The notes under the pieces are model-generated. The model saw only the letters and a program-made list of their open reading frames with translations, was not told the DNA's origin and made no database searches. Source: a virus (Duplodnaviria > Caudoviricetes). Taken from it: a DNA stretch of 64,000 bases. This document shows positions 1-62,774 of the stretch, piece by piece (within the stretch, counting starts at the first letter, position 1; every line of letters starts with the position of its first letter). Where the stretch lies: IMG/VR virus record IMGVR_UViG_3300027286_000002; one strand, written 5' to 3'. A program made the position numbers and the translations under genes.

Positions 1-2479
1 ATCCTCCAAAGATAGCAGAGAAAAGATCAATAACAATTTGTGGTGGACCGGGGATGACAACACATTGACCAATACCTAAAGAAGGAGCATTAGGTTTTTT
101 AGTAGCAGATAAGAAATCAGCAAGTAAACCATCTGTACCTTGTGAAACAACAAAAAGCATACCGACAGTTGCACCTAGATCTAAAGCGAAATTTAAGATA
201 GCATCTATAAATGCTTTTAGTTTAGCAATGATTCTTTGAATTTCTTGTATTCTCTTTTGCAAGACTTCAATAAAATCTTTAATCGCTTTAATAAGACCTT
301 CTAAACCTAAAGTTAAGGTTTCTACAAAAGCAATAATTTCATTTAAATAAGCTGTGAAATCAGGAAAGCCATCAATAAAGAATTTCACATTAAACCAAGC
401 ACCTGTTTCATTTAATACCTTCTGTGGTAAAGAAGTAAGCATCCGTCTAGCATTATCTACAATATCTTGATCTACCAAATCATACATAAGAGAAAGTTTA
501 GCAGTAGTCTTTACTTGTTCTTTTTCTGAAACACCTAATTTCTTTTCTGTGTATGCAGTAGGAAACAAAGGTTCGATTCTTCTTTCAAGACCTGTAGTTA
601 AGTAGATGATGTTATTAAATGCAGATCCTTCAACACGAGGTTTATTTGCCTTTAGAACTTCATCAAAAGAAGTATCGCCAAAGCTACCATAATTATTAGC
701 ATTCCCATGCACACCATACATATTATCTTCTATTAAGAAATCATAAAAACTTTTCTTTTGAATTTGATCGCCTACTTTAACATCTATTCTTTTTTCAGAA
801 AGAAATTCAATTGGCTCTTGCAATGCTATCAGTTGTGCTTCTGTTGGAAAAGGTAATTTATTTACTATGTTCTGAATGACAGCTAAAACATCTGATCTAA
901 AGCTATTCGCATCTTGATCAAATTTCACAAAGCTGGTGGCATTTGCCTGTCTATTGGCATATGCCATAAGATTGAATTTCACTTGTGATGGCAAATTGAA
1001 AAAATGAAACTTACTTGTACCATATAAATATGATTTGGCAAACTCAGCACTTTTTACACCAGCCTCTTGACCATTCAAATAATTCTTTTCATTTAAATAA
1101 TCACCTAAAATGAAAATAGCTAATGCCTCTCTTAAAGCATTGATATAATCTACACGATCATATTTAGGTAGCTTGGTTGAGATAGCATTAGAATTAGTAG
1201 AAACCAAACCTGTAACAATCCCATTAGAAACAATAGAGTTCCATAAGTATAAAGGAAGATTTTCTACAAGATCACTATCACTAAAACCTAAATCTGAACT
1301 TAAAGATAAAACTTCTACATATAAATCTTCTGCTTCACTTTCAGTTTGTTTATCAATAACAGTGATGCCATTTGTTGTATTGCCATCTACTTCATATGGT
1401 TTACTTGAATATGTGATTTTTTTAGGCAAATCTTTATATGGTATGGTTAAGCTATATGAATTACCTGTTAAGAAAGCACCTACTGCGAAAGGATTGTAGT
1501 AAAAAGATTTATTTGTCTTTTCTACCAAGTCTTGTGGCAGGATCACTTTATCATTAAAAAAATACTGATAACTAAAGGGATAACCTTTTTTAATAATGTC
1601 ATCAATAAAGTTTTCAAAATAAGGTATTACACGACTATCTTGAATGAGTGTTGGACTACTTAATAATGTAAATGACTTTCCATTTACAGTAACAGGCTTA
1701 TATAAACTTGCACCTATTTCTTGTGCAAGTTCAATATTAGTAGTTGTCTGTGCAGATTTAGTTCTTCTTAATAAACCTACTTTCACAGGCATAGTACTTA
1801 TATTTACTAAGAAAGCATCAGGTGGTACTACAAAAGATGGAAAAAAACTGTCTTGACTATTAGAAGGTGGTGTTAATTCCCAAGAGATTTTTAAACCTTC
1901 AGGTGTTTTAAGTTTTGAATTAGAGAAAGGAACTCCGAACTTTGAAACAAGTGTTGCTTTAACATTGGATGCGACTGGCAAACCACTATCTTCTAAAATT
2001 CCTGTAAATAGCTTTTTCAAATCATTAAATATTTTGATGAGTCTTAAAATCCCTTCTATATTAGAACCTGCGAATTGAAAAATACCAAGCACAACACTAT
2101 CTTTACTGATAACAGGTCTTGTTGTATCAGCTGGATTAGTAAACTTGTTTACCATCCTTTGCTCAAATGCTTGATATCCACCAGCATACACTTTATAGCC
2201 TTCATCAAAAACTCTTGGCAACATATCCAAATCGGTAGTTAAATAAAGACCTAAGTTTTGAAGATCTGAAATGATATTTTTAATAAGTGCAATAAGCTCT
2301 TTCAAAAGCAATAACAAAGGATTACTGAAATCTATTAGAAAGGCTTTCACAAATTCTAACACATTATTAAGAAAGGTAAGAAAGATATTAAGAGTAGCAA
2401 AGATGTTATCTACAATTGGTCTAACTTCTTTAAAGATGTCAGGTATTTTAGGTGTTTTAATAATTGACCATTCTGCCAT
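1..2479 (-). CDS. Large hypothetical protein (>826 aa, runs off the left edge), probably virion/tail-associated; absent from the supplied ORF track
   Basis: Manual translation from ATG at 2479 (directly after the TAA of the upstream ORF) gives MAEWSIIKTPKIPDIFKEV...GQCVVIPGPPQIVIDLFSAIFGG with no stop to the window edge; amphipathic helical N- and C-terminal blocks. Confidence 0.85.
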   Translation of the reverse strand, partial: MAEWSIIKTPKIPDIFKEVRPIVDNIFATLNIFLTFLNNVLEFVKAFLIDFSNPLLLLLKELIALIKNIISDLQNLGLYLTTDLDMLPRVFDEGYKVYAGGYQAFEQRMVNKFTNPADTTRPVISKDSVVLGIFQFAGSNIEGILRLIKIFNDLKKLFTGILEDSGLPVASNVKATLVSKFGVPFSNSKLKTPEGLKISWELTPPSNSQDSFFPSFVVPPDAFLVNISTMPVKVGLLRRTKSAQTTTNIELAQEIGASLYKPVTVNGKSFTLLSSPTLIQDSRVIPYFENFIDDIIKKGYPFSYQYFFNDKVILPQDLVEKTNKSFYYNPFAVGAFLTGNSYSLTIPYKDLPKKITYSSKPYEVDGNTTNGITVIDKQTESEAEDLYVEVLSLSSDLGFSDSDLVENLPLYLWNSIVSNGIVTGLVSTNSNAISTKLPKYDRVDYINALREALAIFILGDYLNEKNYLNGQEAGVKSAEFAKSYLYGTSKFHFFNLPSQVKFNLMAYANRQANATSFVKFDQDANSFRSDVLAVIQNIVNKLPFPTEAQLIALQEPIEFLSEKRIDVKVGDQIQKKSFYDFLIEDNMYGVHGNANNYGSFGDTSFDEVLKANKPRVEGSAFNNIIYLTTGLERRIEPLFPTAYTEKKLGVSEKEQVKTTAKLSLMYDLVDQDIVDNARRMLTSLPQKVLNETGAWFNVKFFIDGFPDFTAYLNEIIAFVETLTLGLEGLIKAIKDFIEVLQKRIQEIQRIIAKLKAFIDAILNFALDLGATVGMLFVVSQGTDGLLADFLSATKKPNAPSLGIGQCVVIPGPPQIVIDLFSAIFGG

Positions 2480-2677
2480 TTATTTTTTCTCTCTTTGATT
2501 TCTTTTTTGTGCTTCTAATCTTTCTAATTCCATTTGTGCTTTACTTAATTCCATTAAGTCTTTATCCAGCATAGATTGAAACATCTGCTTTAAACTTTCT
2601 AACTGATCTGTAAAGGATTTAACTTTTTCTTGATCTGGATTGATCTTGCTTTTCCATTCTGTCATTTTTAATCTCAC
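2480..2677 (-). CDS. Small coiled-coil hypothetical protein
   Basis: ORF abuts the next gene (TAA-ATG); heptad-like E/K/L-rich sequence. Confidence 0.7.
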   Translation of the reverse strand: MRLKMTEWKSKINPDQEKVKSFTDQLESLKQMFQSMLDKDLMELSKAQMELERLEAQKRNQREKK

Positions 2678-2754
2678 CTTTTTTCACATAAAGAACATTT
2701 AATAAAACAAATATAGTATAAGATACATATCTCTTTTAAATAAAGGAAAAGAAA

Positions 2755-3117
2755 ATGGCTTTAAAAACTCGTAAAGCAATACAAGTTCAAAATGCAATCC
2801 TACAAGACCTGCATCAAATCTTCTTAGAACTCGAAGAACCTGTAAGACCTTTCGTTTCTAATAATGAAACAAAAGAAGATCGTGATGGACAAACTTATAT
2901 TGTAGTGAAAAAAGACGACTTTGAAGATTACTTGGTGCTATGGATTAAAGAATATCAACATGACATTATTAATGTTAAGCATCCTATTGTGTCTGTTGGT
3001 TTTCCACTTGAAAACTTTGAAGTGAATGAAATTTCTCATATTCATAATGCAGATGACTATTACTTTTGGAAACAGGATGTCTTAAGAGAAAGGATTAAAA
3101 AAATTTTAGAAATTTAA
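2755..3117 (+). CDS. Hypothetical protein
   Basis: ORF with AAAGGA RBS upstream. Confidence 0.75.
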   Translation: MALKTRKAIQVQNAILQDLHQIFLELEEPVRPFVSNNETKEDRDGQTYIVVKKDDFEDYLVLWIKEYQHDIINVKHPIVSVGFPLENFEVNEISHIHNADDYYFWKQDVLRERIKKILEI

Positions 3118-3118
3118 A

Positions 3119-3155
3119 TGAACTTGCAATAATATCTTATGCAAAGTGTTATATA
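3119..3155 (+). promoter_or_regulatory. Putative phage promoter motif TGAACTTGCAAT-N-CTTAT-N-AGTGTTATAT, copy 1
   Basis: Same motif and spacing recur at 42131 and 43942; followed by AC-rich leader and AAAGGAG RBS. Confidence 0.65.
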
Positions 3156-3184
3156 AGTACAAACCTAAACAAAAAGGAGTTCTT

Positions 3185-3454
3185 ATGAACACTATCTTAA
3201 ATCAAATCAAATCTGTTGATCTAATCTCTTCTATTGATGTACTTGACTGTTCCGATACTGAACTAGAAAGTCTTCTTTACTGTGATAAAGGTAGTTTTTA
3301 CCTTTACAGTTATATATCTGATAATAACAAAATCGAAATCTCTTTAGATGTAGATGACAGTGAAAATGATGATATGTATCAAGTGTATCATAAGTCTTAT
3401 GATACATCTGATGATATTGCACAAGACCTTAAAACTTTTTTCTCTAACCTATAA
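3185..3454 (+). CDS. Small acidic hypothetical protein
   Basis: AAAGGAG RBS before ATG 3185; first gene after the promoter motif. Confidence 0.75.
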   Translation: MNTILNQIKSVDLISSIDVLDCSDTELESLLYCDKGSFYLYSYISDNNKIEISLDVDDSENDDMYQVYHKSYDTSDDIAQDLKTFFSNL

Positions 3455-3465
3455 GGACAAAAAAA

Positions 3466-4011
3466 ATGATCAAGTCAATCGATATTCTCTTTACTCTCTT
3501 ATCTATGTTAAACACCGAAACACCTGTCTTAGATACAGATGAAATCTGTAAACTAAACCAACTCTCAAATGTTATCTATTCCTATAGTGTAGAGAACACA
3601 TACTTTACTCAAGAGCAATCTGTGCAACATTTAATTGCACTTGCATGGAATGAAACTAGATTTTCTTTTGATACAGATCATATCACACCAAACTACTATG
3701 GTGAGGCTTGTGGTGTGTTTCAACAGACAGATAAATTAAGCATGAATAAATTTGATTGTGTTGATCTTTTACATCCTACTAGAGCAACCAAAGAGGCATT
3801 AGATCAATTGAAATACATAAAAGAAAGATGGGATGGCAAACTAGATAAAACCATCTGTCATTACTTTAGTGGCAATAGATGTGATGATAAAGCATCTGAA
3901 ACCTATGCAAGTAATCATAAAAATGCAAGACTTAAAGCAGTAGAGTTTTTAAAGAAATCTAAAAATATTGATCATTCTGAAATTAAGAAAGTAATAGAAA
4001 CCTGTCTTTAA
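3466..4011 (+). CDS. Lytic transglycosylase (SLT/lysozyme-like) protein
   Basis: IALAWNETRF (catalytic Glu motif), ACGVFQQ (GxxQ), CHYFSG (AYNxG-like); hydrophobic N-terminus. Confidence 0.65.
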   Translation: MIKSIDILFTLLSMLNTETPVLDTDEICKLNQLSNVIYSYSVENTYFTQEQSVQHLIALAWNETRFSFDTDHITPNYYGEACGVFQQTDKLSMNKFDCVDLLHPTRATKEALDQLKYIKERWDGKLDKTICHYFSGNRCDDKASETYASNHKNARLKAVEFLKKSKNIDHSEIKKVIETCL

Positions 4012-4049
4012 TATAATGAATTTGAATTTTTATAAAGGAGTACTTAAAA

Positions 4050-4217
4050 ATGAATTGCACGATCTGTGGCAAAAAATACCACGACCTGCCTAATGCTATC
4101 AAATGGACTGAAAGAGATGGTGGTGCTTGTGAACCTTGTGTACATAGACTTAGAAAAACCTTTGGCAAATACCATGAACATTTCATTACACATGAAAATA
4201 AGAAAGCTAAAAAATGA
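4050..4217 (+). CDS. Small CxxC...CxxC zinc-finger protein (55 aa), not in the ORF track
   Basis: AAGGAG RBS; MNCTICGKKY...GACEPCVHRL...; TGA overlaps the primase ATG (ATGA). Confidence 0.7.
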   Translation: MNCTICGKKYHDLPNAIKWTERDGGACEPCVHRLRKTFGKYHEHFITHENKKAKK

Positions 4218-4891
4218 ATTGGCTAGATGATTTTATCTCAATCCTGCCTTTAAGCACAGAGCATCAAAACTACTTAAATAAAAGAGGTGTGGATCAAAAC
4301 ACTAATGTTAATTTTAAAACCTTTGATATGGTAAACTTTAACATTCCGTGTGATCGATTTAAAGCAACCTTTGGCAAAGCAGGTGAAAAATTAAAAGACT
4401 GTTTAATCATCCCTGCTACCTGTCCAAAAGGTGAAACCTATGGATTTGAAGCAAGGTCTTGGGATGCAAATGGTAATAAAAAAGTTTTTAAATATATGCT
4501 AGATCGCAGTCAATGGATACCTTCTTTACTTAATGGACATGAAGTAGCTGAATCATTATGGTCTAATGGTGATGTTTATTTTGTTGAAGGTGTCTTTGAT
4601 ATGGTTGCTCTTAAAAAGGTTATCTCATATCCCAATGCAGTAGGCTGTACTATGAGAGCAGGTGTAGATGAATTAACAATCTCTTTAATCCAAAGGTTTG
4701 CTAATAAGATCAGTACTATTTATATGGCATACGATAATGACAACACAGGTAGATTGAAATCTAGTGATGCTATTTATAAATTCAAAAAGTTAGGTATTCG
4801 TGCTGTGGAATGTAAATATCGTGGCAAAGATCCAAATGAATTATGGACGATACAAGGAGATGCAGGTCTAAAAAGATACTTCCTATTTTAA
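4214..4891 (+). CDS. dnaG: DnaG-type primase catalytic (TOPRIM) subunit lacking the zinc-binding domain
   Basis: YLNKRG, YFVEGVFDMVAL, AYDNDNTGR (DxD), KDPNEL motifs; only 225 aa, no N-terminal CHC2. Confidence 0.8.
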   Translation: MNWLDDFISILPLSTEHQNYLNKRGVDQNTNVNFKTFDMVNFNIPCDRFKATFGKAGEKLKDCLIIPATCPKGETYGFEARSWDANGNKKVFKYMLDRSQWIPSLLNGHEVAESLWSNGDVYFVEGVFDMVALKKVISYPNAVGCTMRAGVDELTISLIQRFANKISTIYMAYDNDNTGRLKSSDAIYKFKKLGIRAVECKYRGKDPNELWTIQGDAGLKRYFLF

Positions 4892-4946
4892 TAATTCTTT
4901 TATCTTATTATATTTAGATATGAACACAATATGAAAGGTAATCAAA

Positions 4947-5345
4947 ATGAAGTATCTTATTTCATCTTTAAAGAATCGTTTAAATAAAATAGCAGGTGTT
5001 GAAAAGATTGCAGGTGGTCTTTTTAGTGAGATTTTTTTTAAGACTGTAGAAAAGCAATTGAAGTCTAATCCTGTGATTAAAAAATCAGAATATAAAGTAG
5101 CTGTGGATGATGATGCAGAAAGTATTGTTATTTATAAAGATGATCAAGAACTTGCATTAGTTTTTAGATTGATGTTAGAAAGTCCTAAAATTAATGGTTA
5201 TGCCATCTCTTGGGAAATCGCAGGATTTTCAAAGGTTTGGGATGGTAAAGAAAGCAATCTTACATCTGATGAAATTGAACAAGAACTCGTAGGTTATATT
5301 GTAAAGATGTTTAAACTCTCTTGGCAAAAAGGCTACCTTCAATAA
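4947..5345 (+). CDS. Hypothetical protein with basic leader ending KIAG (twice)
   Basis: ORF with AAAGG RBS; leader SSLKNRLNKIAG resembles STLKNRLKKAN of 60538. Confidence 0.75.
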   Translation: MKYLISSLKNRLNKIAGVEKIAGGLFSEIFFKTVEKQLKSNPVIKKSEYKVAVDDDAESIVIYKDDQELALVFRLMLESPKINGYAISWEIAGFSKVWDGKESNLTSDEIEQELVGYIVKMFKLSWQKGYLQ

Positions 5346-5350
5346 AATTT

Positions 5351-5389
5351 TGATATTCCCTTCTATTATAAAATAAAAAGGGAATATCA
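5351..5389 (+). promoter_or_regulatory. 12-bp perfect hairpin sequestering the RBS of 5391, with TATAAAATA in the loop
   Basis: TGATATTCCCTT (5351-5362) pairs with AAGGGAATATCA (5378-5389); ATG at 5391. Confidence 0.6.
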
Positions 5390-5390
5390 G

Positions 5391-6263
5391 ATGAGTAGAC
5401 AAGTTTTAATAAATAATGTAGTCAAAAGACATATCATTCGTTTAGCATCTATTGATGCTATTCGTGAAAGTAAAAAATATAAAACAGCTAGTGCTGGATA
5501 TGTTCGTTCTGAAATCACACCTGAAGTTTTAGAAGTTTTAGGCAATCATCTTTTCTATAAGACTGCTTTTATTAAAGACATTACTTCTTTATATGAAAAC
5601 ACTAAAAATTCTTTAATCCATATCTATGAAGAAATACAAAAGAAACCAAACAAATGGGAAGAAATTAAAAAAACCTTAAATCTCGATCCTAAAAATATTG
5701 GTTCTATGCTAATGGACTTGCCTAATTTTAAATCCAATTTTGGCAAGTGGTTAGAAAGTGTTATTAAAGATATACCTTTCTTAAACATCATGTATAAAGT
5801 GTCTAAATTAGAATATACACAAGCGAAACAATGGTTAGAGAACTTATATGCTAAACTACCTGCTAAAATCCAACAAGGTATAGATAAACTTAAAAATATG
5901 GCTACATCTGTTAAGGATTGGTTAGGAAAGATTTGGGATTTATTAAAAGAAAAAATTAAAAAGACAGATAACAAAGCAGTAAACATAGCTGTGTTTTTAG
6001 TCTATTTAGGTATTTCAAGAAAAATAGATGATGATACCTTTGCAAAGAAAAATCTAGTATCAGGACTAACAGGCAAATTAGATAGTGATCAGATACTAGA
6101 TGATTTACCTATGGATAAGTTAAGTGATTTCATATCTGCTCTTTTAGAGGATTTCATAGATATTGAAGATATTGTGAAATATAAGACTTTACCTTTTCAG
6201 ATTTATTTCCTTTATCAAGAAGGATATTTAGATGAAGAACTAAGAATATTGAAAGGACATTAG
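5391..6263 (+). CDS. Hypothetical protein, paralog 1 of a tandem triplet (KTAS leader)
   Basis: Shares leader, IYEE.QK.PN.WE..KK.L, and C-terminal FY.LYQ...LDE with 6266 and 7138. Confidence 0.8.
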   Translation: MSRQVLINNVVKRHIIRLASIDAIRESKKYKTASAGYVRSEITPEVLEVLGNHLFYKTAFIKDITSLYENTKNSLIHIYEEIQKKPNKWEEIKKTLNLDPKNIGSMLMDLPNFKSNFGKWLESVIKDIPFLNIMYKVSKLEYTQAKQWLENLYAKLPAKIQQGIDKLKNMATSVKDWLGKIWDLLKEKIKKTDNKAVNIAVFLVYLGISRKIDDDTFAKKNLVSGLTGKLDSDQILDDLPMDKLSDFISALLEDFIDIEDIVKYKTLPFQIYFLYQEGYLDEELRILKGH

Positions 6264-6265
6264 GA

Positions 6266-7141
6266 ATGAAAAGAGAAATTTTAATAAAACTTGCCTGTCA
6301 AATAGCAGTACATAAAAGCATTAAATATAAAACTGCATCACATTTAAGACAAGAACTTAATGCGACTACTTTAATACCTTTTGGCAATCAAATTGTTAAG
6401 TATGGTTCTATTAAAGGTCTTGTTGGTAAAATTAAACAAATCTATGAAGGTTTTCAAAAGATGCCAAACCTTTGGGAAAAGTTTAAAGAAAAATTAGGTA
6501 TCACTGCGACTAATGTTGTTTCTCTATATAAGCAACTTAATGAAAAGTTATCTGAATATCTTGAAGAAGGTAAAAAATGGATTGATGGACATAAACAGAA
6601 ACTAGCAAAAGAAAACAAGCTAATTTATTTTATGTTCTTATATGCAGAGAATGCACCTACAATAACAGGTTCTATAAAAACACTACTTGAAAAGATCAAT
6701 CCTGATAATTCATCTAAGCTGTCTAAAAAACTTAAACAATTATCAGATGGATTTGGAAACCTAAAAGACACAATAGATGAGTTCTTTAAAAAACATCCTG
6801 TTCTACATACAATCAGTATTCCTGCTAAAGCATATTTATTTTGGATCATTTGGGTCAATGTAGCTGAAGTCAGTTGGAAAATCACAGATATTATTAAAGG
6901 TTTTCTAGGTCAAATCTCATGGGGTGATCTTTTAGAATCACTACCTGAAAGTGGTTTAGGTTTTCTTATCCAAATCTTTATGCCTTTCATCCCAAGTGGC
7001 ATGGTTGCATCTTCTTTAAAGATAGGTTGGAATGCACTGATCATCCCTGCTATGGGTATACAATTTTATTATCTGTATCAACAACACTTAATAGATGAAC
7101 ATGGTAAACTGATTGAAAGTGAAGTAGAGAAACTAACATGA
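6266..7141 (+). CDS. Hypothetical protein with hydrophobic C-terminal helices, paralog 2 (KTAS leader)
   Basis: Extensive identity with 7138 (ELNATTLIPF.NQIVK, GWNALIIPAMG.QFYYLY). Confidence 0.85.
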   Translation: MKREILIKLACQIAVHKSIKYKTASHLRQELNATTLIPFGNQIVKYGSIKGLVGKIKQIYEGFQKMPNLWEKFKEKLGITATNVVSLYKQLNEKLSEYLEEGKKWIDGHKQKLAKENKLIYFMFLYAENAPTITGSIKTLLEKINPDNSSKLSKKLKQLSDGFGNLKDTIDEFFKKHPVLHTISIPAKAYLFWIIWVNVAEVSWKITDIIKGFLGQISWGDLLESLPESGLGFLIQIFMPFIPSGMVASSLKIGWNALIIPAMGIQFYYLYQQHLIDEHGKLIESEVEKLT

Positions 7142-8010
7142 AATATATAAAACTTGCCTGCATACAAGCAATAAAAGAAAGTAAAAAGATAAGGACAGCT
7201 AGTGCATATCAAGTTAGAAAAGAACTTAATGCGACTACCTTAATACCTTTTGCTAACCAAATTGTTAAACATGGTTCTCTTTTTGGACTAACAAGTAAAC
7301 TCAAAGATATTTATGAAAAGTACCAAGAGCAACCACAGATGTGGAATCTTTTTAAAAAGACTTTAGGTATTAATGCTATAGATAATGTTTCTCTATATCA
7401 CCAGCTTAATGATAAATTAGCAGGATATCTTGAACAAGGTAAAGAATGGGTCAATAAGCATAAACAACAGCTATCGGAAAAAAATAAGTATTTGTACTTT
7501 ATGTTCTTATATGCAGATAAAGCACCAACAGTAACAAGTTCAATAAACTATTTACTTGAAAGAGTAGATAGTGAAGAAAAGCAAATTATCATGCAGGCAT
7601 TTAAAAAATACAATGGTGGTTTTAATACCTTTGCAGAAATTATTGAAGATTTTTTTGATCATCATCCTGTTTTTGATGTCATGTCTATGCCTGCTAAAGC
7701 ATATGTATTTTGGTTAGTTTGGACAAATGTAACAGAAATAAGTTGGAAGGTTACAGATATCACTAAAGGATTTTTAGGTTTAATGTCATGGGGTGATCTT
7801 ATTCGTACTTTACCTGAAACAGGTTTAGGTTTACTTATTCAAGTATTTTGTCCTTTTATCCCAAGTGGAATGATTGCATCCTCTTTGAAGATAGGATGGA
7901 ATGCTTTAATAATACCTGCTATGGGTGCTCAATTTTATTATCTGTATCGCAGGCATTTAATAGATGAAAAAGGTAATCTAATTGAAAGTGAAGTTTTAAA
8001 ATTAGAATAG
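7138..8010 (+). CDS. Hypothetical protein with hydrophobic C-terminal helices, paralog 3 (RTAS leader)
   Basis: ATGA overlap with 6266; strong protein and DNA similarity to it. Confidence 0.85.
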   Translation: MKYIKLACIQAIKESKKIRTASAYQVRKELNATTLIPFANQIVKHGSLFGLTSKLKDIYEKYQEQPQMWNLFKKTLGINAIDNVSLYHQLNDKLAGYLEQGKEWVNKHKQQLSEKNKYLYFMFLYADKAPTVTSSINYLLERVDSEEKQIIMQAFKKYNGGFNTFAEIIEDFFDHHPVFDVMSMPAKAYVFWLVWTNVTEISWKVTDITKGFLGLMSWGDLIRTLPETGLGLLIQVFCPFIPSGMIASSLKIGWNALIIPAMGAQFYYLYRRHLIDEKGNLIESEVLKLE

Positions 8011-8090
8011 CATTTTTTAAGTAAATCAAATCCTTAATAATATAAGTAAATGGACAACAAAACTCTTCTTTTGTCAAAAGGAAAAAACAA

Positions 8091-9140
8091 ATGGAAGTCC
8101 ATTTTCATGTTAAACAAAACAGACAACATTTAAGATCATTGATCAGTTTGTCTAAAAAAAATAAAACATCTCGTGCAGTAAAATTTGAATGTTTTAATAA
8201 CACCATTAAAGCAACTGCTACAAATAATGATTTCATCTTGTCATGTATTTTAGACGGATCTATCTATGATGATGGTATTGTCTTTTTACCTACTGATGTT
8301 TTAGATAAAGCTATGAGATCATCTACTATCATTTTAAAAGATGATCGCATCTCTTATGGTGAAGAACCTGATGGTCTTTTCTCTCAAGGTGATATTGAAA
8401 CTGTTGAGTTTACTCAATTAGAATTTACTAGCAAAGAAGATGATTTTGAAACCTTTACAGGTAAAAAGATCAATCAAGCACAAGCGATTGAACTCGGATA
8501 TGCTCTTAAAAATGCTGTTCGTTTCTTATCCAAAGAAGAAGGAAAGAATAAAATCACAGGTGTTTATTATGATCCAACCAATCGTAATATCGTATCTACT
8601 GATGGTACTAAACTCTTTACTCAAAAGCTAACATTTGAATTTGTCAATCAAAAGGCTTTGATCCCTGCTGATGCTATTCCTATTCTTGCTGATAACCTTA
8701 TTAATGCTCATGCTAGTGTTAAGGATTGTCATTTGAATATCCAAAATGCGACTACAAGATATTCAATTTTGCTGGTGAATGAAAGTTTTCCAAACTACTT
8801 AAATGTCATGCCTAAAGATGCTGATCTTGAAAAGATCAATATCTCTGCTCGTGGCAAACAAGCATTATATGAAAGCGAAAAAGTGATTGATACACCTATT
8901 ATGAAAATAGATGTAGATGAAAGATCCACATTGAGATTGACCAATACAGAAAGTCAATATGTATGGCAAGAGAATGAATTTCAAGGTAAAGAACGATCTG
9001 TTAATTTCAATATTAACAACCTCACTCAAGTTCTAGCTTTAACTGAAAACATTTACTGCAATCCTAGAAACTTTTCATCTGCACCATTCTTATTTACAAA
9101 AGATAATGTTAAAATCTTATTGATGCCTACAAAAGTTTAA
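8091..9140 (+). CDS. dnaN: DNA polymerase III beta sliding clamp
   Basis: About 350 aa; IVSTDGTKL (VATDGHRL-like), FPNYLNVMP, C-terminal LLMPTKV (LIMPVR-like). Confidence 0.8.
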   Translation: MEVHFHVKQNRQHLRSLISLSKKNKTSRAVKFECFNNTIKATATNNDFILSCILDGSIYDDGIVFLPTDVLDKAMRSSTIILKDDRISYGEEPDGLFSQGDIETVEFTQLEFTSKEDDFETFTGKKINQAQAIELGYALKNAVRFLSKEEGKNKITGVYYDPTNRNIVSTDGTKLFTQKLTFEFVNQKALIPADAIPILADNLINAHASVKDCHLNIQNATTRYSILLVNESFPNYLNVMPKDADLEKINISARGKQALYESEKVIDTPIMKIDVDERSTLRLTNTESQYVWQENEFQGKERSVNFNINNLTQVLALTENIYCNPRNFSSAPFLFTKDNVKILLMPTKV

Positions 9141-54242: not shown

Positions 54243-54272
54243 TTGCTTTTTTAAAAATTATCAGTATTCTAT

Positions 54273-54668: not shown

Positions 54669-55126
54669 CATCCTTCTGTGCTTTCATCTGTTATACCTAA
54701 ACGAGTTTTTAAATACATAATATTTTCTTCATTTATTGTCTTAAGTATAGCTTTTCTTTCTTTATCTTCATTATTAGAATGAAATACTAGCTGTAAACAA
54801 TCAGGTGTATCTTTGCGATTAATAAACACCACTACATCTTCTCTATCTTTATATTTAGATTGTATTTCATTATATATAGACATGGCAAATTGCAAATCAT
54901 GTGGCAGAAAAACAATAACCTTTGAATGGTCTTCTTTATCTATCTTAAAAGAATTAAGATATTCCTTTTTAGAGAAACGATAAAAGAATTTAGACCTTTC
55001 TCTAAAAGTTAAATCATATACATTTAAACGATACCTGTCACCATATCGTTTTAAGATGTTTGTTTTATCCGTGCAGTATGTTAGAGCATTTAAAGCAAGT
55101 TCTTTATCTTCAAAGTAGATATACAT
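54665..55126 (-). CDS. Hypothetical protein
   Basis: AAAGGA RBS before ATG 55126. Confidence 0.7.
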   Translation of the reverse strand: MYIYFEDKELALNALTYCTDKTNILKRYGDRYRLNVYDLTFRERSKFFYRFSKKEYLNSFKIDKEDHSKVIVFLPHDLQFAMSIYNEIQSKYKDREDVVVFINRKDTPDCLQLVFHSNNEDKERKAILKTINEENIMYLKTRLGITDESTEGC

Positions 55127-55186
55127 TTTTATAATCCTTTTATATGCACAATCTCTATTAAACAAAATACAAAGGACTTAGTAAAG

Positions 55187-55438
55187 ATGTTTAAACGATT
55201 TGCACGAAATCTTAAAGTAGATAATGCTATTCATGGTATTGATGAAATGCTGGATGAAATTATGGAAATCCAAATTGAATTTCAAGAAGATAGACAAAAT
55301 ATCCCTTCTTCTGAATTTCAATATGGTCTTGCTTTTCAACAATCTTTAGGCACTATTCCACAGGCACTTAAAGCTATTGCTGAAGCTGAAAAACAACTTA
55401 ACATTGCTAAAAACATTTTCTTAAAACAAACAAGGTAG
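55187..55438 (+). CDS. Small helical hypothetical protein
   Basis: AAAGGA RBS. Confidence 0.75.
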   Translation: MFKRFARNLKVDNAIHGIDEMLDEIMEIQIEFQEDRQNIPSSEFQYGLAFQQSLGTIPQALKAIAEAEKQLNIAKNIFLKQTR

Positions 55439-55446
55439 ATAAACAC

Positions 55447-56040
55447 ATGAGAAAATTAAGAATTTTAAAAGCTAAACTAGATCTTATTAAAAACAAGTTT
55501 ATGGATATTGACACTTCTGTTATCAAACAACATCCTGAAGATAAAGATGAGATTTGGAATATGTATGAGAAATCATACAAGTCTATTGGTATGCACTTAA
55601 ACCAAGACACTTTATTTAAATATGATGATTTTGTTTTAAAAGATATTGATGAAGATCCATATGCTGATTTATTTATTAGCATGACAGATACACCACATGG
55701 CAAAAAATTAGGTATTGCAGGCAATGATGGCAGTCCTGAAGCAATACAAGCTATTAAAGAAGCTATTGCTACTTATTTGCATAAACAAGGCTACTTTGCT
55801 GAACTTTCTTTAAAGACAGAATATATTGCTCAAAAGCATGGTGTTCCTTTTATTGACAATCAAGAAATTGTTGAGAAAGTTTTAGGTAAGCCTGTTGATT
55901 GGGAAGGTGATGGTTATTACTCAAGACAATTAGGTGAAATGGGAAATGTATCTAAAAGACTTTATGGATTTCCTAAAGGTGTTTCACCTGAACTCTTAAA
56001 AGATAGTCATAGATTTCAAGGTGCTATTAAAAGTCATTAA
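55447..56040 (+). CDS. Hypothetical protein
   Basis: AAGGT RBS; DIDEDPYAD..F..T..GKKLG..G.DGS pattern. Confidence 0.75.
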   Translation: MRKLRILKAKLDLIKNKFMDIDTSVIKQHPEDKDEIWNMYEKSYKSIGMHLNQDTLFKYDDFVLKDIDEDPYADLFISMTDTPHGKKLGIAGNDGSPEAIQAIKEAIATYLHKQGYFAELSLKTEYIAQKHGVPFIDNQEIVEKVLGKPVDWEGDGYYSRQLGEMGNVSKRLYGFPKGVSPELLKDSHRFQGAIKSH

Positions 56041-56097
56041 TACTTTTTTTATAGATATTTTTATTATGAAACCTACTCTCAAAAAAGGACTAACATT

Positions 56098-57471
56098 ATG
56101 TTAAACATGATTTCTTTTTTAAAAATGCTCATCAGCATTTTAACAAAAAAAACCAAAAACGAATGGAAATTTAAAATTCAAAATGGTGGTGTTATTTCAG
56201 GTGTACATACAATCTCAGGACTAGAACTTCTTTTAGAATTTAAAAGTAGACCTGTAGATATGGGAATGTCTGTTCTAGTGAATTTAATGATTACATCTAA
56301 TGATCCACAAGAAACCATAGAAGATACTAGAAATGAATACCTAATTACAGTGGACAATCAAATTCAAGATACTCTTGTTGTTGCTGATTGGATTATGGAA
56401 GGTCTAACATATGCAGAAAGAGCATGGTATCGTGGTTACTATCGTACTGCATCTACTCAAAAAACTTCTAATGATACTAGCAATCAAATCCTTGAACTAT
56501 TAGGTGGTAGAGATAATATCAAATCTTTCACTAATGGTGGTTCTGTTCAGATACTTTCAGGAAATAAAGGAATTATTTTCCCTAGACAACTTCCTTATGG
56601 TAAAGGCGATAAAATTTATTACATCCATGTCTTAGCAAATAACAATGGAAGTTATGATGTAAACTTTTTAGGTGCAGGTAAAACACCTAATGTTAAAAAG
56701 AGTTTAAAAGATGTGCCTGCAGAAAATCTTTTATTTGAGATTATGGAAAATGCTTATAGTGGTCGTACTGCTTCTACTCAAAAAACTTCTAATGAAATTG
56801 GCAATCAAATCCTTGAACTGTTAGGTGGAAATAGAACTTTAAAAATGATGGCAGGTGCAAAACAATTTGTTGGTATGCCTAATGGTGTTCAAATCCATAT
56901 TCCTAGAACAGGCAAAGGCATTGGTTTGATTATGATTACTCTTAATGGATCTGATAGCTATGATTTAAAGTTTTATAGTCCTTTCAGTTCAAAAACATTT
57001 GATCGTAAAGTCAAGAGTAGTGAAAATGATGTACCTGTAGAAAAATTGCTTTCTACTGTTGAATATCATACAGGTCTTTCTTTACGAGTACCTAAAATTG
57101 AACAAATACCAACTCCTCCAAATTGGAGTTTATTTGGTAGAAAAGCAGGCGAATTTGAAAATCCTGTAATTAATGGTGCTGATGATGTTATTAACCTTTT
57201 AGGTGGTGAAGAAAAAATTAAGTCTATGATGTATGGTTCTCATATTGCTAGATCTAATAAAGCTATGGGTGGTATTATTTTTTCAGTTCCTCTTGTTTTT
57301 GGTGTTGGTGTTGAACATATAGGTATCTTCTTAAATGATTTAGGTACATATAATATTGATTTCTATGGGAAAATGAAAAGTACTACACCTAATTTTAAAA
57401 AGAGATTGATCAATATACCTGCTGATAAAGTTAAAATGGCTATTGCAAAATATGCCAAACTTTATTTCTAA
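56098..57471 (+). CDS. Protein with three tandem copies of an uncharacterised (QILELLGG) domain separated by RTAS/RKAG linkers
   Basis: NQILELLGG twice and DVINLLGG, each followed by I.F..P......I......G.Y...F.G/S. Confidence 0.8.
   Translation: MLNMISFLKMLISILTKKTKNEWKFKIQNGGVISGVHTISGLELLLEFKSRPVDMGMSVLVNLMITSNDPQETIEDTRNEYLITVDNQIQDTLVVADWIMEGLTYAERAWYRGYYRTASTQKTSNDTSNQILELLGGRDNIKSFTNGGSVQILSGNKGIIFPRQLPYGKGDKIYYIHVLANNNGSYDVNFLGAGKTPNVKKSLKDVPAENLLFEIMENAYSGRTASTQKTSNEIGNQILELLGGNRTLKMMAGAKQFVGMPNGVQIHIPRTGKGIGLIMITLNGSDSYDLKFYSPFSSKTFDRKVKSSENDVPVEKLLSTVEYHTGLSLRVPKIEQIPTPPNWSLFGRKAGEFENPVINGADDVINLLGGEEKIKSMMYGSHIARSNKAMGGIIFSVPLVFGVGVEHIGIFLNDLGTYNIDFYGKMKSTTPNFKKRLINIPADKVKMAIAKYAKLYF
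56443..56795 (+). repeat. 32-bp direct repeat (56443-56474 and 56764-56795, one mismatch) encoding RTASTQKTSN
   Basis: CGTACTGC(A/T)TCTACTCAAAAAACTTCTAATGA, followed in both copies by CAATCAAATCCTTGAACT.TTAGGTGG. Confidence 0.9.
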
Positions 57472-57474
57472 TCA

Positions 57475-57711
57475 TTATTTATCTAAATCCAAATCAAAAT
57501 CTTTATTCATAAACACAGGTGCATCTTCAAAATATGGCAAGGATCTTAATACATTGTATTCAAACCATTCCAATGCCTCTTCATAAGACCATTCATTAAT
57601 TCGCATGAATGTTTCCAATACTAACTCTGTGTCATAGACTGCACAATCTGCATCATATAAAACACCTACTACACATTTATCAAATTCATCTCTTGGATCT
57701 AGCAATTTCAT
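57475..57711 (-). CDS. Conserved small acidic phage protein
   Basis: FDKCVVG...AVYD.....YEEALEWFEYN.....P.F pattern. Confidence 0.65.
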   Translation of the reverse strand: MKLLDPRDEFDKCVVGVLYDADCAVYDTELVLETFMRINEWSYEEALEWFEYNVLRSLPYFEDAPVFMNKDFDLDLDK

Positions 57712-57776
57712 TTTTTTCAAATCTTTTTTTTGTTTAATATGTTTATCTATTATATACAAGACAAAGGATATCTAAA

Positions 57777-58769
57777 ATGAAATATCTTGCTAAAGAACGA
57801 TCTGATGAAGAAAAAAAAGAAATCTATGATAAGTGGAAAAAACTTATCAATATGTCAGAAAAAGAATTAAAAGAATGGGGCGATAATCCAGATCACCTTG
57901 AAGCTTCTTTAAATAGAGAAGAGGCTAAAGATAATGGCAAAATCCAATCAGGTTATGATTCTTTTCATCGTATTAAAAGAAGAAAAGACAAACCTTTTGA
58001 AGATTGGACTGCTCAAGATTTTGATAATGCTAGTCAAGAGAATGGTTTTAATGGTCGTATGCTTGGTGGATCACCCGGGCAACCTGTAGGTTCAACAGGT
58101 AGAAGTAAATGGGAAATCTCTTTAAGAAATTGGGGACATGATCCATCTAAAGCTAGTAGTCCTGCATATAGCAAATGGAAAAAATGGAAAAAAGATAATG
58201 AAGAAGAGATTAAAAAATCCAAAGCTAAAAAAGAAGCATCTCTTATCATGCGAGCATATAAATTAAGTTATCTTTTTGATAACACAAGTAGTCTTAGAAC
58301 TGCCTGCATGAATTGTCTTATCTCATCTACACCACAGACAAAAACAGCTTTTAAAAATGAGTTAATAAAAGTAGCTAGTAGAAACCATGTGTTTAATGAA
58401 AGCATAGTGAATAATACCTTTGCTATGAGAAAAGCCACTACATTAAGCCAAATCAAAACAGGTTTAAATCCTAATATCGTAGCTAGTGATAAACAAATCA
58501 CAGGTGAATTTAATGGTAAAAATAAAGTAAATACCTTTCAAGTAGGTGAGTATCAAGTCAATGTTCTAGTCGATACCAATAACAATGTATTTACAAATTG
58601 TGATTGTGGATTTTGGAAATATCAAGGTGCTGAGTATCATGCAAAACAAGACGGATATTTATTAGGTGATCCACAAGGCACTGCTGATAAACCACAAGTC
58701 AAAGATCCAAAGGGAAACAATAAGCTATGTAAACACACATTAGCTGTTTTAGAAAGGATTATCAAATGA
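57777..58769 (+). CDS. Two-domain protein: DUF3140-like N-domain plus SWIM zinc finger, with internal basic tag
   Basis: WKKLINMS..EL..W...SLRNWGHDP; CDC...CKH; internal SLRTAC...KTAF...KVAS...RKAT. Confidence 0.65.
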   Translation: MKYLAKERSDEEKKEIYDKWKKLINMSEKELKEWGDNPDHLEASLNREEAKDNGKIQSGYDSFHRIKRRKDKPFEDWTAQDFDNASQENGFNGRMLGGSPGQPVGSTGRSKWEISLRNWGHDPSKASSPAYSKWKKWKKDNEEEIKKSKAKKEASLIMRAYKLSYLFDNTSSLRTACMNCLISSTPQTKTAFKNELIKVASRNHVFNESIVNNTFAMRKATTLSQIKTGLNPNIVASDKQITGEFNGKNKVNTFQVGEYQVNVLVDTNNNVFTNCDCGFWKYQGAEYHAKQDGYLLGDPQGTADKPQVKDPKGNNKLCKHTLAVLERIIK

Positions 58770-59638
58770 ATAAGCAAGGTTGTATTGTTGCTCTAGGTCA
58801 ATGGAATGATGATCGTGTTCTTTTTAAGAATAGAGATCGTAATTATAGAAATTGCATAACATTCCACCATGAATTAAGACATGGTGTAGAAGTCTTATAT
58901 TTTAAAGATGCTCTCACAGGATGGATAGAAGGTATGAATCAATATGGCATAGGTATTATTAATGCTACTCTTATGCCTTCAATAGATGAAAGTCGCTTGA
59001 AAGATTCAGCTAAAGGTGATGGTGAAATTATTCTTAAAGCACTAGAACAAAAAACTGTTGAAGATGCTATGGATATGATTTGTGGATATAAGAATGGACT
59101 ATATGGACATACAATTATATCTAATGCAGATAAGTCATATTCAGTAGAGCATTTTGAAGGTGAAGAACCTGTCTGTAAAGAAATTAATCCAAATGAAGAT
59201 GTTCATGTAAGAACAAATCATGGTATAGATATTCCTCATGCAGGTGTACAAAATGGTAATGGTAGAAAATCCACTATCACTAGAAGATTAAGAGCATTAA
59301 AAGCATTAAGAAATACTGAAAGTAAAGAAAGCATTATTGAGAATATCTATAAATACAGACCAAATGGTTTTGATGATCCACATAATATGGTTAGGAATCT
59401 ACCAAATGGTTTAAAGACAGGCTGTCAATATGTGATTGATCCACAAGAGAAAACATTTAATTTTTATACCTTACCATACAAGGTTAGGATTTTAGGATAT
59501 AAGTGTAATGTAGTGAAACCACGATTGAAATTAAATTTGTTTAGGATTTGTAAAGAAGATGGTCAAGGTAATTTTAAATTAGAACCATACAAAATACCAA
59601 AAGAAACCAATCCATTCTTAAAAGGTAAATGGAGATGA
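58766..59638 (+). CDS. Ntn-hydrolase (peptidase C45/acylase-like) with N-terminal Cys nucleophile
   Basis: GCIVAL...FKNRDR...EGMNQYGIGIIN...RTNH. Confidence 0.65.
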   Translation: MNKQGCIVALGQWNDDRVLFKNRDRNYRNCITFHHELRHGVEVLYFKDALTGWIEGMNQYGIGIINATLMPSIDESRLKDSAKGDGEIILKALEQKTVEDAMDMICGYKNGLYGHTIISNADKSYSVEHFEGEEPVCKEINPNEDVHVRTNHGIDIPHAGVQNGNGRKSTITRRLRALKALRNTESKESIIENIYKYRPNGFDDPHNMVRNLPNGLKTGCQYVIDPQEKTFNFYTLPYKVRILGYKCNVVKPRLKLNLFRICKEDGQGNFKLEPYKIPKETNPFLKGKWR

Positions 59639-60060
59639 TATATTTTGCTTATGGTAGTAATACCAATCCTAAAGTTATGTTATCAAGAATACCGAATGCA
59701 CAATTTTATGGTAGGTATAGTCTAAAAGATTGGGAATTAAGATTTGCAGGACATTCTAGAAACCATCGTCAAAATGGTGTTTTAGATATTAAACCAAATC
59801 CTAATTCTACAGTACATGGTATTTTATGGCAGATACCTGATGATAGCATCTCTTCTTTAGATCATGAAGAAGGATGTAAATACCATCACTTTTCTTTTTT
59901 ATTAAACACAGGTGAAAAAGCATTTAGCTACACAATGGTAAGAGATGCTATGAAAAATAAACCACATTTAGAATATGTGGATATCGTATTAAATGGATAT
60001 AAGTTATTTGGTTTGCCAAAACAAGATGTTATGCTTGCCTACTACAAATCCCTTGTATAA
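59629..60060 (+). CDS. Gamma-glutamylcyclotransferase (AIG2/GGCT) family protein
   Basis: YFAYGSN, V.GILW, LDHEEG, P...Y...VL.GY...GLP. Confidence 0.85.
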   Translation: MEMIYFAYGSNTNPKVMLSRIPNAQFYGRYSLKDWELRFAGHSRNHRQNGVLDIKPNPNSTVHGILWQIPDDSISSLDHEEGCKYHHFSFLLNTGEKAFSYTMVRDAMKNKPHLEYVDIVLNGYKLFGLPKQDVMLAYYKSLV

Positions 60061-60086
60061 TTAAAATAAAACAAAGGAATATTAAA

Positions 60087-60479
60087 ATGCCTTCTTACAG
60101 CTATATCTGCAAAGAATGTGAACATGAATTTAATGTCACTAAAAAAATCTCTGAATACAATAAACCTGAAGCTTGTCCTGAATGTTCTGCGAATGACTGT
60201 ACAAGACAAATCACTATGCCACAAGTCATGTTTAAAGGTGATAGCTGGATAGATAAGAATAATCGTATCAGTAAACAGATGTCAGATAAAAATAAGAAAC
60301 TTGCTGTTAGAGAAAATGAAATGAAGAGAGATGCACCTAGTGTTAAGCTAGTACCTAATGTAAATGGTGAAAGAGTAGATTCTTGGTCGGATGCTCAAAA
60401 ACTTGCCAAAGATTTAGGCAAGAATACAGAAAGCTATAGTGAACTTGTTAAGAAAGAAGATACCTTAAAGAAAAGTTAA
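60087..60479 (+). CDS. FmdB-type zinc-ribbon protein
   Basis: MPSYSYICKECEHEF...CPECS...F.G..W. Confidence 0.8.
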   Translation: MPSYSYICKECEHEFNVTKKISEYNKPEACPECSANDCTRQITMPQVMFKGDSWIDKNNRISKQMSDKNKKLAVRENEMKRDAPSVKLVPNVNGERVDSWSDAQKLAKDLGKNTESYSELVKKEDTLKKS

Positions 60480-60537
60480 TAATGTTTTAATATAAGATAT
60501 ATTATGTATATAACCTCTTTTCAAAGGATTAAAGCAA

Positions 60538-60948
60538 ATGGCAAAGTTATCTACTCTTAAAAATAGATTAAAGAAAGCGAATGAAATGCTTTCACATACC
60601 ATGTTTGATGAATATGATTTTAATCAAGATCAAATGATTGGTCGTGATGAATGGGAAGGCAATGATGATATGTTTTCTTTATTAGATAGCAATAAAGATG
60701 AATATCTTGATTCAGATGAAATTTCTCAAGGTGTTGGTCAATCTTTTTCTCGTTATGCGAAAGATGAAGAATATTTAACACCACAAGAAATTGCAGATAT
60801 TATGGGTGGTACTTTAGTGTCTGTTAAGCCTGCTAAAACTGCTCGTACTAAAAAAGCAGAAAGTGAAAGATATTTAACACCACAAGAGATCGCTGATATT
60901 ATGGGTGGTAAACTTGTATCTGTTAAGACTGCTCGTAAAAGATTTTAA
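60538..60948 (+). CDS. EF-hand-like protein with basic leader and a duplicated C-terminal 20 aa motif
   Basis: DFNQDQMIGRDE and DSNKDEYLDSDE loops; YLTPQEIADIMGG.LVSVK twice, 99 bp apart. Confidence 0.7.
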   Translation: MAKLSTLKNRLKKANEMLSHTMFDEYDFNQDQMIGRDEWEGNDDMFSLLDSNKDEYLDSDEISQGVGQSFSRYAKDEEYLTPQEIADIMGGTLVSVKPAKTARTKKAESERYLTPQEIADIMGGKLVSVKTARKRF

Positions 60949-61017
60949 TATTAAATTTATATTTTAATCCTTGTTTGTTATAAAAAACATTCACTTAAAA
61001 AACAAGGATGGTCAAAA

Positions 61018-62001
61018 ATGAATCGCTCTCAAACGATTGCTACTTTATATAAGTTATCTTTCCAAACACCTAAAGGTCATTCTTTAAGACAGGCTTGTCT
61101 TATTGCTATGGGTAAAGTTCGTGTTGCTAGTGATGCCAAAGTTGAAACTATTGTTGAAGATTTAGCTGATGCACCTAAAGATGTTCAGAATGAAGCTAAA
61201 TTAAATCTAGTTGCTGAAGCTATGGTTTCTACTGTAGAAGAACATGAAAAGAAACTTGCACCTAAAGGTCTAAATAAAATCAAAGCATGGATTAAAAAAC
61301 ATAGTGTTACTATTCAAAATATCCAAAATAAAAACTTTGCTGTAGTATCTGCTCCTGTTGATGCAGTTTCTATTGCTTTTGAGGTTATTGATCTTAATCT
61401 CAATAAAACAAAAAGTGGTGGCGATATTTCAGGTACTATTGCTTTTATTGCATCTGTTCTTTCTGCTGAAAGTGCTGAAGATCTTTTAAAAGCTGAAAGT
61501 AAAGAATGGGAAAAATTTAAACCTTATCTACCTACTTTCTTAGGTTTAGGTGCAGTCGCTGTTGAAGAAAATTGGATCAGTATCCAAAAATATGCTTTGA
61601 AATATGGATATGAAGCTCTTCATGCTGTTGAAATGTGGTTGCATGGTGCATCTTGGTTAAAAGTAGCAGGTGCTGTTGCAGGATCTTTTGCAGTCATTTT
61701 GACTCTTTGTCTTTTGTTCGGATCACATAATGTTTATATGCTCTTGAAAAAAGCCGCCGCTTTGGTATTTGGTCTACCTATGGCTGTTATTAATGATGTC
61801 CTTAGTGCTGTCAAATGGGGATATAATAAAGTTAAAGGTATCTTTGATGATGCAGGTGCTAAACTTAAAGCATGGTGGGATGAAGAAGAAGAAACTGTTG
61901 TTAAGAAAACTGCCAATCGTCTTGTTATCCGTGAATTTAAAAAACTCGCTATGCAAGATGAAAAATTCTATCGTTTAGCCTCTCAAACATTTGCTCTTTA
62001 A
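61018..62001 (+). CDS. Hydrophobic hypothetical protein with basic leader (RVAS) and trailer (KKTAN..KLA); paralog of 36956
   Basis: Leader SLRQACL resembles ALQKACL of 36956; shared C-terminal block. Confidence 0.8.
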   Translation: MNRSQTIATLYKLSFQTPKGHSLRQACLIAMGKVRVASDAKVETIVEDLADAPKDVQNEAKLNLVAEAMVSTVEEHEKKLAPKGLNKIKAWIKKHSVTIQNIQNKNFAVVSAPVDAVSIAFEVIDLNLNKTKSGGDISGTIAFIASVLSAESAEDLLKAESKEWEKFKPYLPTFLGLGAVAVEENWISIQKYALKYGYEALHAVEMWLHGASWLKVAGAVAGSFAVILTLCLLFGSHNVYMLLKKAAALVFGLPMAVINDVLSAVKWGYNKVKGIFDDAGAKLKAWWDEEEETVVKKTANRLVIREFKKLAMQDEKFYRLASQTFAL

Positions 62002-62057
62002 TATTCTTTTAATTAAATCCTGTCTTTTATAATATTATCAATAAAGGATTTAATTTT

Positions 62058-62774
62058 ATGTCAAGAGGAAGATTAGCACCTAGTCTTAATGCTAGATCTA
62101 AAGGTCTAGTAGATATGTCTTTAAAAAATGATTTACTTAGAGCAATGGATCAAATTGAAGTAGCTGGTGCTAGTAATGTCACTACTGCCTATAATAATCC
62201 CAAATCTATGTTTACTGTTAAAGTTGGATCTTCTTTCCGATCTATCACTATTAAAACTACTAAAACTTTAGCTGATGAAAATAATAGAGATTTAACAAGA
62301 TGGATTTTTGATCCAAATGACTATGCAGATACACTACCTGTTAATCCATTAGACACTAAACTTCCATCGGATACTGATGTTCTTTATATCCGTGTTCGTG
62401 GAAAATATAGACATAACCAACAATGGTCTGATTATGGACCCATCATTTGTGTTCCACCATTTGATTTCTTTACTACTGCTCATCCTGTCTTTACCTTTAC
62501 AGGTACTGCACCTGCTTTAGCTGATGAACCTGATGTAATGGATTTTGGTACAATGAATATTCATTTACCTTATTTCTCACATACCATTAGTGTTTTGAAT
62601 TTAGATGATACAGATTCAAGTTATGTTGCTTTTCACCCGGGCATGAATCCTACCATCATTAGACCTTATGGTGAAATTGGTTTAACAGGTGGTGGAGCAC
62701 CCGAACTGTTTATTGCAGGTGCAGGTGATGAAATTAGATTTACTGTTAGAATGGTTTTAGTAAATCATTCTTAA
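62058..62774 (+). CDS. Hypothetical beta-rich protein, probably virion structural
   Basis: AAAGGA RBS; beta-strand-rich composition. Confidence 0.65.
   Translation: MSRGRLAPSLNARSKGLVDMSLKNDLLRAMDQIEVAGASNVTTAYNNPKSMFTVKVGSSFRSITIKTTKTLADENNRDLTRWIFDPNDYADTLPVNPLDTKLPSDTDVLYIRVRGKYRHNQQWSDYGPIICVPPFDFFTTAHPVFTFTGTAPALADEPDVMDFGTMNIHLPYFSHTISVLNLDDTDSSYVAFHPGMNPTIIRPYGEIGLTGGGAPELFIAGAGDEIRFTVRMVLVNHS

Follow-up and report, generated by a model that had tools for sequence, protein, structure and literature searches.

The 64-kb stretch of viral DNA analysed here (IMG/VR record IMGVR_UViG_3300027286_000002, Duplodnaviria; Caudoviricetes; hereafter the window) is nearly devoid of the asymmetric word CCAGD, which reads HCTGG on the other strand. 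A sequence-only reading had noticed that CCWGG, the target of EcoRII/BstNI/MvaI-type enzymes and the site of Dcm methylation, was almost missing, and had ascribed this to strong selection by a host restriction or methyl-sensing system. The avoided word is CCAGD and not CCWGG, which is lost because both of its forms contain CCAGD/HCTGG and which is a sub-word without a signal of its own in the window. The CCWGG gap itself is ordinary, as restriction-site avoidance is textbook knowledge, and the window is a very clean new case of this known phenomenon that is not specific to CCWGG. Part of its value is that it offers a natural experiment: the window and its sister genome, syntenic and about 80% identical, have observed-to-expected ratios (O/E) for CCAG of 0.25 and 1.02, and the loss of targets is visible site by site, from codon pairs to dipeptides.

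CCWGG was counted against three nulls of 300 shuffles each (synonymous codons within a gene, synonymous codons with dinucleotides preserved, and free permutation of codons), all resting on the 63 genes called in the window (31.8% G+C, about 96% coding). The word occurs once, in the Pro-Trp context already seen by eye, against 15.5 ± 2.7 (minimum 9), 13.4 ± 2.6 (minimum 7), and 47 ± 7 expected under the three nulls, respectively, and 19 predicted by a maximal-order Markov model. None of 300 shuffles had one CCWGG or fewer, and the O/E of 0.06-0.07 under the codon-aware, synonymous nulls is not near 1, so that the depletion of CCWGG stands. GGWCC is not avoided (15 vs 16-17 expected), in agreement with the earlier remark that there is no general avoidance of GC, and CCSGG is found at 10 places (14 overlapping hits). 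The claim that every Pro-Gly pair uses CCC or CCG was likewise correct: all ten Pro-Gly dipeptides in the called genes are written CCC/CCG-GGN, although 94% of the proline codons of the window are CCT or CCA (CCT 443, CCA 232, CCC 28, CCG 12; hypergeometric p ~1e-13). Nine of the ten positions given for these pairs match; the one placed at 38155 was wrong, the actual site being on the minus strand at 38134-38139 (Table 1).

Table 1. Positions of the avoided word, of the Pro-Gly codon pairs, and of the methyltransferase gene in the window, with the aligned CCWGG form in the sister genome G001 for seven of the pairs
Feature	Position	Strand	Detail
Genome-wide CCAGD/HCTGG avoidance, CCWGG included	1..64000	.	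11 CCAGD/HCTGG sites vs 95-160 expected
Pro-Gly = CCC-GGT	47..52	-	G001 aligned: CCAGG
Pro-Gly = CCG-GGC	13663..13668	-	
Pro-Gly = CCC-GGC	15775..15780	-	
Pro-Gly = CCC-GGA	20511..20516	-	G001 aligned: CCAGG
Pro-Gly = CCC-GGG	22525..22530	+	G001 aligned: CCAGG
Pro-Gly = CCC-GGC	31858..31863	+	G001 aligned: CCTGG
Pro-Gly = CCG-GGG	38134..38139	-	
Sole CCWGG (CCTGG), read CCC-TGG (Pro-Trp) in open reading frame 39099-39485	39286..39290	+	Motif count
Beta-class N6-adenine/N4-cytosine DNA methyltransferase gene, sole methyltransferase found in the window	39656..40591	-	Pfam PF01555, 4.4e-48
Pro-Gly = CCG-GGT	41362..41367	-	G001 aligned: CCTGG
Pro-Gly = CCC-GGG	58074..58079	+	G001 aligned: CCAGG
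Pro-Gly = CCG-GGC	62637..62642	+	G001 aligned: CCTGG

When all 4- to 6-mers were ranked against both synonymous nulls, CCAG/CTGG was the most depleted 4-mer (57 vs 229-231 expected, or 146 with dinucleotides preserved). Its 5-mers CCAGT (1 observed; 75 and 42 expected under the synonymous and the dinucleotide-preserving null, respectively), CCAGA (9; 70 and 39), and CCAGG (1; 16 and 14) are the avoided ones, and CCAGC (46; 70 and 51) is the tolerated form. The observation that CTGG appears mostly within GCTGG thus holds, CCAGC/GCTGG making up 46 of the 57 CCAG/CTGG sites. The related words CCAA, CCAC, CCAT, TCAG, ACAG, and GCAG are at or above expectation. CCAGD in the sense orientation occurs 7, 0, and 1 times in the three codon phases (51, 10, and 7 expected), and antisense HCTGG 1, 2, and 0 times (71, 11, and 10 expected); since neither orientation and no codon phase is spared, the depletion acts on duplex DNA and not on mRNA or decoding. 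The surviving CCAG sites are spread evenly along the window, and no regional clustering of survivors was found in the window or in the relatives G003, G008, and G012 described below.

The window encodes DnaB-like and SNF2-type helicases, a tail protein, very large structural-type proteins, and a GMP reductase. A megablast of the window against phage records returned no close relative among deposited phage genomes. Its helicase matches 31 IMG/VR loci whose contigs reach 376 kb, which makes the window a piece of an uncultured jumbo phage with a predicted genome of roughly 300 kb. In the helicase tree, the window and G001 (IMGVR_UViG_3300046779_001841; 316 kb, 31.1% G+C, estimated complete) are sisters with support of 99/97, and G001:181.7-250.8 kb is the region syntenic with the window. 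G001 has CCAG at expectation (1342 vs ~1310) as well as CCWGG (91 vs 103-107) and no excess of CAGG. Like the window, it avoids ACGT (0/~320, observed/expected in G001), ATGCAT (0/108), AAGCTT (0/106), GAATTC (1/77), GTCTC (3/~160), and GCWGC (1/38). The alignment (38.9 kb of columns) covers 132 CCAGD sites of G001, of which only 6 (5%) are identical in the window, compared with 35-62% for seven control 5-mers. Of the 14 CCWGG sites of G001 in the alignment, seven read CCSGG in the window and seven show Gly/Ala or Pro/Ala/Gln replacements.

Comparison of the two genomes showed that the purge runs mainly through silent codon choice. Thr-Gly pairs use ACT 0 and ACA 90 times in the window (173 and 236 in G001), Ser-Gly pairs TCT 1 and TCA 33 times (143 and 38 in G001), and Ala-Gly pairs GCT 16 and GCA 89 times (170 and 224 in G001), the last keeping some GCT because GCTGG is tolerated. 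Pro-Gly is confined to CCC (6) and CCG (4), with neither CCT nor CCA, because CCT-GG contains CTGG and CCA-GG contains CCAG; G001 has CCT 52, CCA 31, CCC 1, and CCG 0. Codons ending in AC, TC, and CC, common before Trp in G001, precede Trp 0, 1, and 1 times in the window, and those ending in GC eight times. The great abundance of CAGG/CCTG that had been noted in the window is real (452 vs 294-377 expected) and results from the escape of NCT-GG to NCA-GG (e.g. ACT-GG to ACA-GG). The word purge also reshapes protein sequence: the Pro-Gly dipeptide is four-fold rare (10 vs 43 ± 6 in within-protein shuffles), Ala-Ala occurs 3 times vs ~73 expected (GCWGC is absent), and Gly-Pro 14 times vs 43 expected.

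Ten further contigs of the clade (71-376 kb, 32-48% G+C) were evaluated with the same synonymous-shuffle null. CCAG O/E was 0.08 in G003 (130 vs 1566 expected; 12-fold), 0.17 in G008, 0.28 in G012, 0.33 in G007 and G014, 0.36 in G006, 0.38 in G009, 0.43 in G002, 0.49 in G011, and 0.74 in G004. On the tree, CCAG is depleted in all sampled members save G001, which makes G001 the outlier and the window typical. In two controls, Bacillus phage G and LR745208 (485 kb, more distant), CCAG is at or above expectation under a simpler dinucleotide null, and the depletion is therefore not general to large or AT-rich phages. Profiles at the fifth base differ between relatives. G003 has all four CCAGN 5-mers removed; G007 lacks CCAGG (0/58) and nearly lacks CCAGT (2/85), with CCAGA (67/130) and CCAGC (47/75) only halved; in G002, CCAGG is at expectation (48/44) and CCAGA, CCAGC, and CCAGT are depleted. 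Across the clade, no CCAG 5-mer is removed as consistently as CCAGT (O/E 0.01-0.56). Pro-Gly is written exclusively with CCS in the window and G007, both CCWGG avoiders, and exclusively with CCW in G001, G002, G004, and G011, which avoid CCSGG/CCGG. This tracking of the avoided word by the CCS/CCW choice across twelve genomes makes defence-driven codon usage unusually visible.

Besides CCAG/CTGG, about 30 other minimal words are strongly avoided in the window, among them the classic 6-bp palindromes ATGCAT (0/23), AAGCTT (2/32), and GAATTC (0/16). Avoidance of ACGT, GCGC, CTGCAG, GTCTC, GATC, and AATT switches between the genomes of the clade. The higher-GC relatives G004, G011, G012, and G003 strongly avoid AATT (87/815 in G011, 207/1311 in G004); avoidance of GATC is confined to G007 (40/224), and that of GTCTC and GAGCT to the window and G001.

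We propose that cutting by host restriction endonucleases selected for the loss of CCAGD/HCTGG from the DNA of the window, in which case the selecting agent would be one or several host enzymes whose targets share a CCAG core. The data give good support to a sequence-specific host defence that selects at the level of the DNA, and it is highly probable that the pattern is restriction-site avoidance of CCAGD, with CCWGG lost as part of it. The sequence-only reading was thus right in suspecting selection of the restriction type, the depletion being strand-symmetric, independent of codon phase, silent, missing from the sister, and variable among relatives. The Dcm/EcoRII/MvaI-type target that it named is not singled out, and the pattern in the window can be explained without a dedicated EcoRII/Dcm target.

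Restriction-site avoidance was reportedly addressed in earlier work by Sharp in 1986 and Rocha in 2001. Avoidance of recognition sites is an established anti-restriction strategy of phages, surveyed for non-temperate dsDNA phages by Rusinov et al. 2018 (PMC6286503), and host genomes avoid orthodox Type II sites equally often whether these are palindromic or not (PMC4687349). The window resembles known phage cases in that its words are depleted on both strands, mostly by synonymous change, and in a set that differs between relatives. It differs from typical cases in that its strongest word is an asymmetric 4/5-mer instead of a palindrome and that the purge extends to about 30 words simultaneously, with effects at the protein level.

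Several points weigh against restriction as the cause. A literature search for a CCAG- or CCAGD-specific enzyme or methylated motif found none, and no enzyme known to us has just CCAG or CCAGD as its target. The enzymes BsrI (ACTGG), EcoRII/BstNI-type (CCWGG), and BspNCI (CCAGA) together cover three of the four CCAGN 5-mers, but with 5-bp enzymes, three would have to act on one and the same phage to produce the full pattern. The only CCAG-containing site met in the literature is TCCAGG, listed for GmeII from REBASE (table in PMC6329791). Because of the differing fifth-base profiles we lean towards several related 5-bp specificities; the alternative, one enzyme with the 4-bp target CCAG and a phage that methylates sub-words such as CCAGC, is somewhat less probable.

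Two known enzyme types match the pattern in part. The likeness to an EcoRII/BstNI/MvaI/Dcm target is that CCWGG is nearly gone, one site in 64 kb being a poor substrate for the two-site enzyme EcoRII; T3 and T7 are refractory to EcoRII through their sparse sites. The difference is that CCAGT and CCAGA are equally depleted in the window and that CCSGG owes its enrichment solely to being the escape form. ACTGG (1/-1) is recognised by BsrI, a Type IIS enzyme of the BsmI/BsrI group (PMC2831314). Among the CCAG 5-mers of the window, this site (ACTGG/CCAGT) has been removed most completely, but BsrI accounts for a single one of the three that are avoided; the sister sites of the BsrI group, GAATGC, GCAATG, and GCAGTG, showed no notable avoidance in the window.

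How G001 retains CCAG may be connected to methylation. G001 has five C5-cytosine methyltransferase genes (at 3928-5016, 5031-6125, 179736-180881, 231418-232182, and 310256-311353), none with a counterpart in the window, and no C5-methyltransferase was detected within the 64-kb window. G001 could have escaped by methylating its DNA with these five enzymes, or by living in a host without the restriction enzyme(s). The multispecific C5-methyltransferases of Bacillus phages SPR and phi3T are examples of self-methylation as an alternative to avoidance. The parallel is that G001, with five C5-methyltransferases, has CCAG and CCWGG at expectation and that the syntenic 64 kb of the window has none and is purged; the difference is that only one genome pair is concerned. 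This pair suggests that methylation and site avoidance are alternative escapes. As a further reservation, the link between C5-methyltransferases and lack of avoidance is a single contrast, and only 64 kb of the window's genome were read, so that C5-methyltransferases may lie elsewhere in it.

The single methyltransferase of the window (39656-40591) has M.RsrI as its closest solved structure (3e-23) and is an insertion relative to G001, which lacks this N6/N4 gene; a C5 gene of G001 (PF00145, 231418-232182) follows about 1 kb further on. One syntenic spot (window 39548-41075, G001 230765-232849) thus carries different methyltransferase insertions in the two genomes. The open reading frame that contains the sole CCWGG is an orphan, without a homologue in G001 and the other relatives compared. 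We considered that this CCWGG might be a recent acquisition, given that the orphan frame lies beside the methyltransferase insertion, and rejected this, as frames absent from G001 hold 3 leftover avoided words vs 8.2 expected.

An asymmetric 4/5-mer that is depleted up to 12-fold clade-wide, with no single enzyme known for it, points to restriction specificities in uncultured bacteria. We tentatively raise the possibility, which we hold to be the less probable outcome, that CCAG/CTGG is the core of an undescribed, widespread family of restriction specificities in the hosts of the clade (targets of four fixed, asymmetric base pairs plus a fifth that varies), that the phage genomes are its negative prints, and that G001 is an escape by C5-methylation.

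Among the explanations that compete with restriction of CCAGD, the one that survives best assumes a CCWGG-specific system (an EcoRII/MvaI-type endonuclease or an enzyme that senses Dcm-type methylation) that selects independently of other CCAG words. CCWGG is a very common restriction-modification specificity and can act as a separate word in the clade, being absent from G007 and at expectation in G002; a separate pressure on CCWGG is conceivable in view of G007, where CCAGA and CCAGC are only halved. In the window, however, the O/E of CCAGG (0.06) is no lower than those of its siblings CCAGT (0.01) and CCAGA (0.13), which leaves nothing for an agent restricted to CCWGG, and with CCAGT (1/75) and CCAGA (9/70) as depleted as CCAGG (1/16) the depletion is not specific to CCWGG. 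Since the codon switches in Thr-Gly, Ser-Gly, and Trp contexts are not attributable to CCWGG either, we regard an independent CCWGG system as unlikely in the window.

Depletion of CCAG in every sampled clade member but G001, across 32-50% G+C, is as compatible with a cause carried by the phage as with one carried by the host, and the clade might encode a CCAG-directed nuclease of its own (e.g. for degradation of host DNA), lost by G001, whose targets it avoids in itself. No nuclease that tracks avoidance was found among window genes conserved in avoiders and absent from G001; the only window genes common to avoiders and missing from G001 encode an AAT/C45 Ntn-hydrolase and a gamma-glutamyl cyclotransferase-like protein, neither of which is a nuclease. 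As fifth-base preferences also differ between relatives, self-avoidance is very improbable.

Mutational decay, in which 5-methylated cytosines in CCAG/CCWGG are lost by deamination or through a bias of very-short-patch repair, would accord with the strong CpG depletion of the window (rho 0.29), its excess of TpG/CpA, and the C5-methyltransferases of relatives. The differences at the 132 aligned CCAGD sites are dominated by A/T swaps at the third letter (76, vs 14 C>T and 13 G>A), which excludes methylcytosine deamination as the cause. Moreover, the C5-methyltransferase-rich G001 is the one that keeps CCAG, the window has no such gene, and very-short-patch repair is expected to create CCWGG/CCAG, not to remove it (PMC4687349); we give mutational decay practically no weight. 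A translational effect, with NCT-GGN and CCA-GNN codon pairs disfavoured in decoding, draws on the facts that most of the CCAG signal falls at codon junctions and that codon-pair bias exists in bacteria, but is hardly credible because the word and its reverse complement are equally depleted in all three phases and because G001, with the same gene set and base composition, has no such bias.

Further depleted words and other genes were recorded in the window. RCGY (ACGT, ACGC/GCGT, GCGC) is absent vs ~178 expected under the synonymous shuffle, as is CGCG; G001 also lacks ACGT but retains some ACGC and GCGC. With 56 sites vs 188 expected, GGAG/CTCC is rare on both strands, and its depletion is therefore not simply avoidance of internal Shine-Dalgarno-like sites; the word is also depleted in G001 (380/870) but not in the higher-GC relatives. 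The AAT/C45 Ntn-hydrolase-like gene (PF03417) adjoins the gamma-glutamyl cyclotransferase/AIG2-like gene (PF06094/PF13772; GGACT-like) at 58766-60060. Both are cleanly deleted in G001, and the former is kept in nine other clade genomes and the latter in four; their loss coincides with G001 being the only non-avoider, a single contrast. The GMP reductase/IMPDH-family gene lies at 41074-42141 (PF00478, 4.7e-93) and has relatives in genomes of many phyla, the best, at 45% identity, on small contigs of metagenome-assembled genomes labelled Bdellovibrio, and thus gave no indication of the host. Three tandem open reading frames of ~290 amino acids each (5391-6263, 6266-7141, and 7138-8010) had no Pfam or PHROG match, the Pfam search covering one of the three. 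They are missing from G001; weak to moderate relatives (21-56% identity) occur in G002, G004, and G011 and, for two of the three, in G012.

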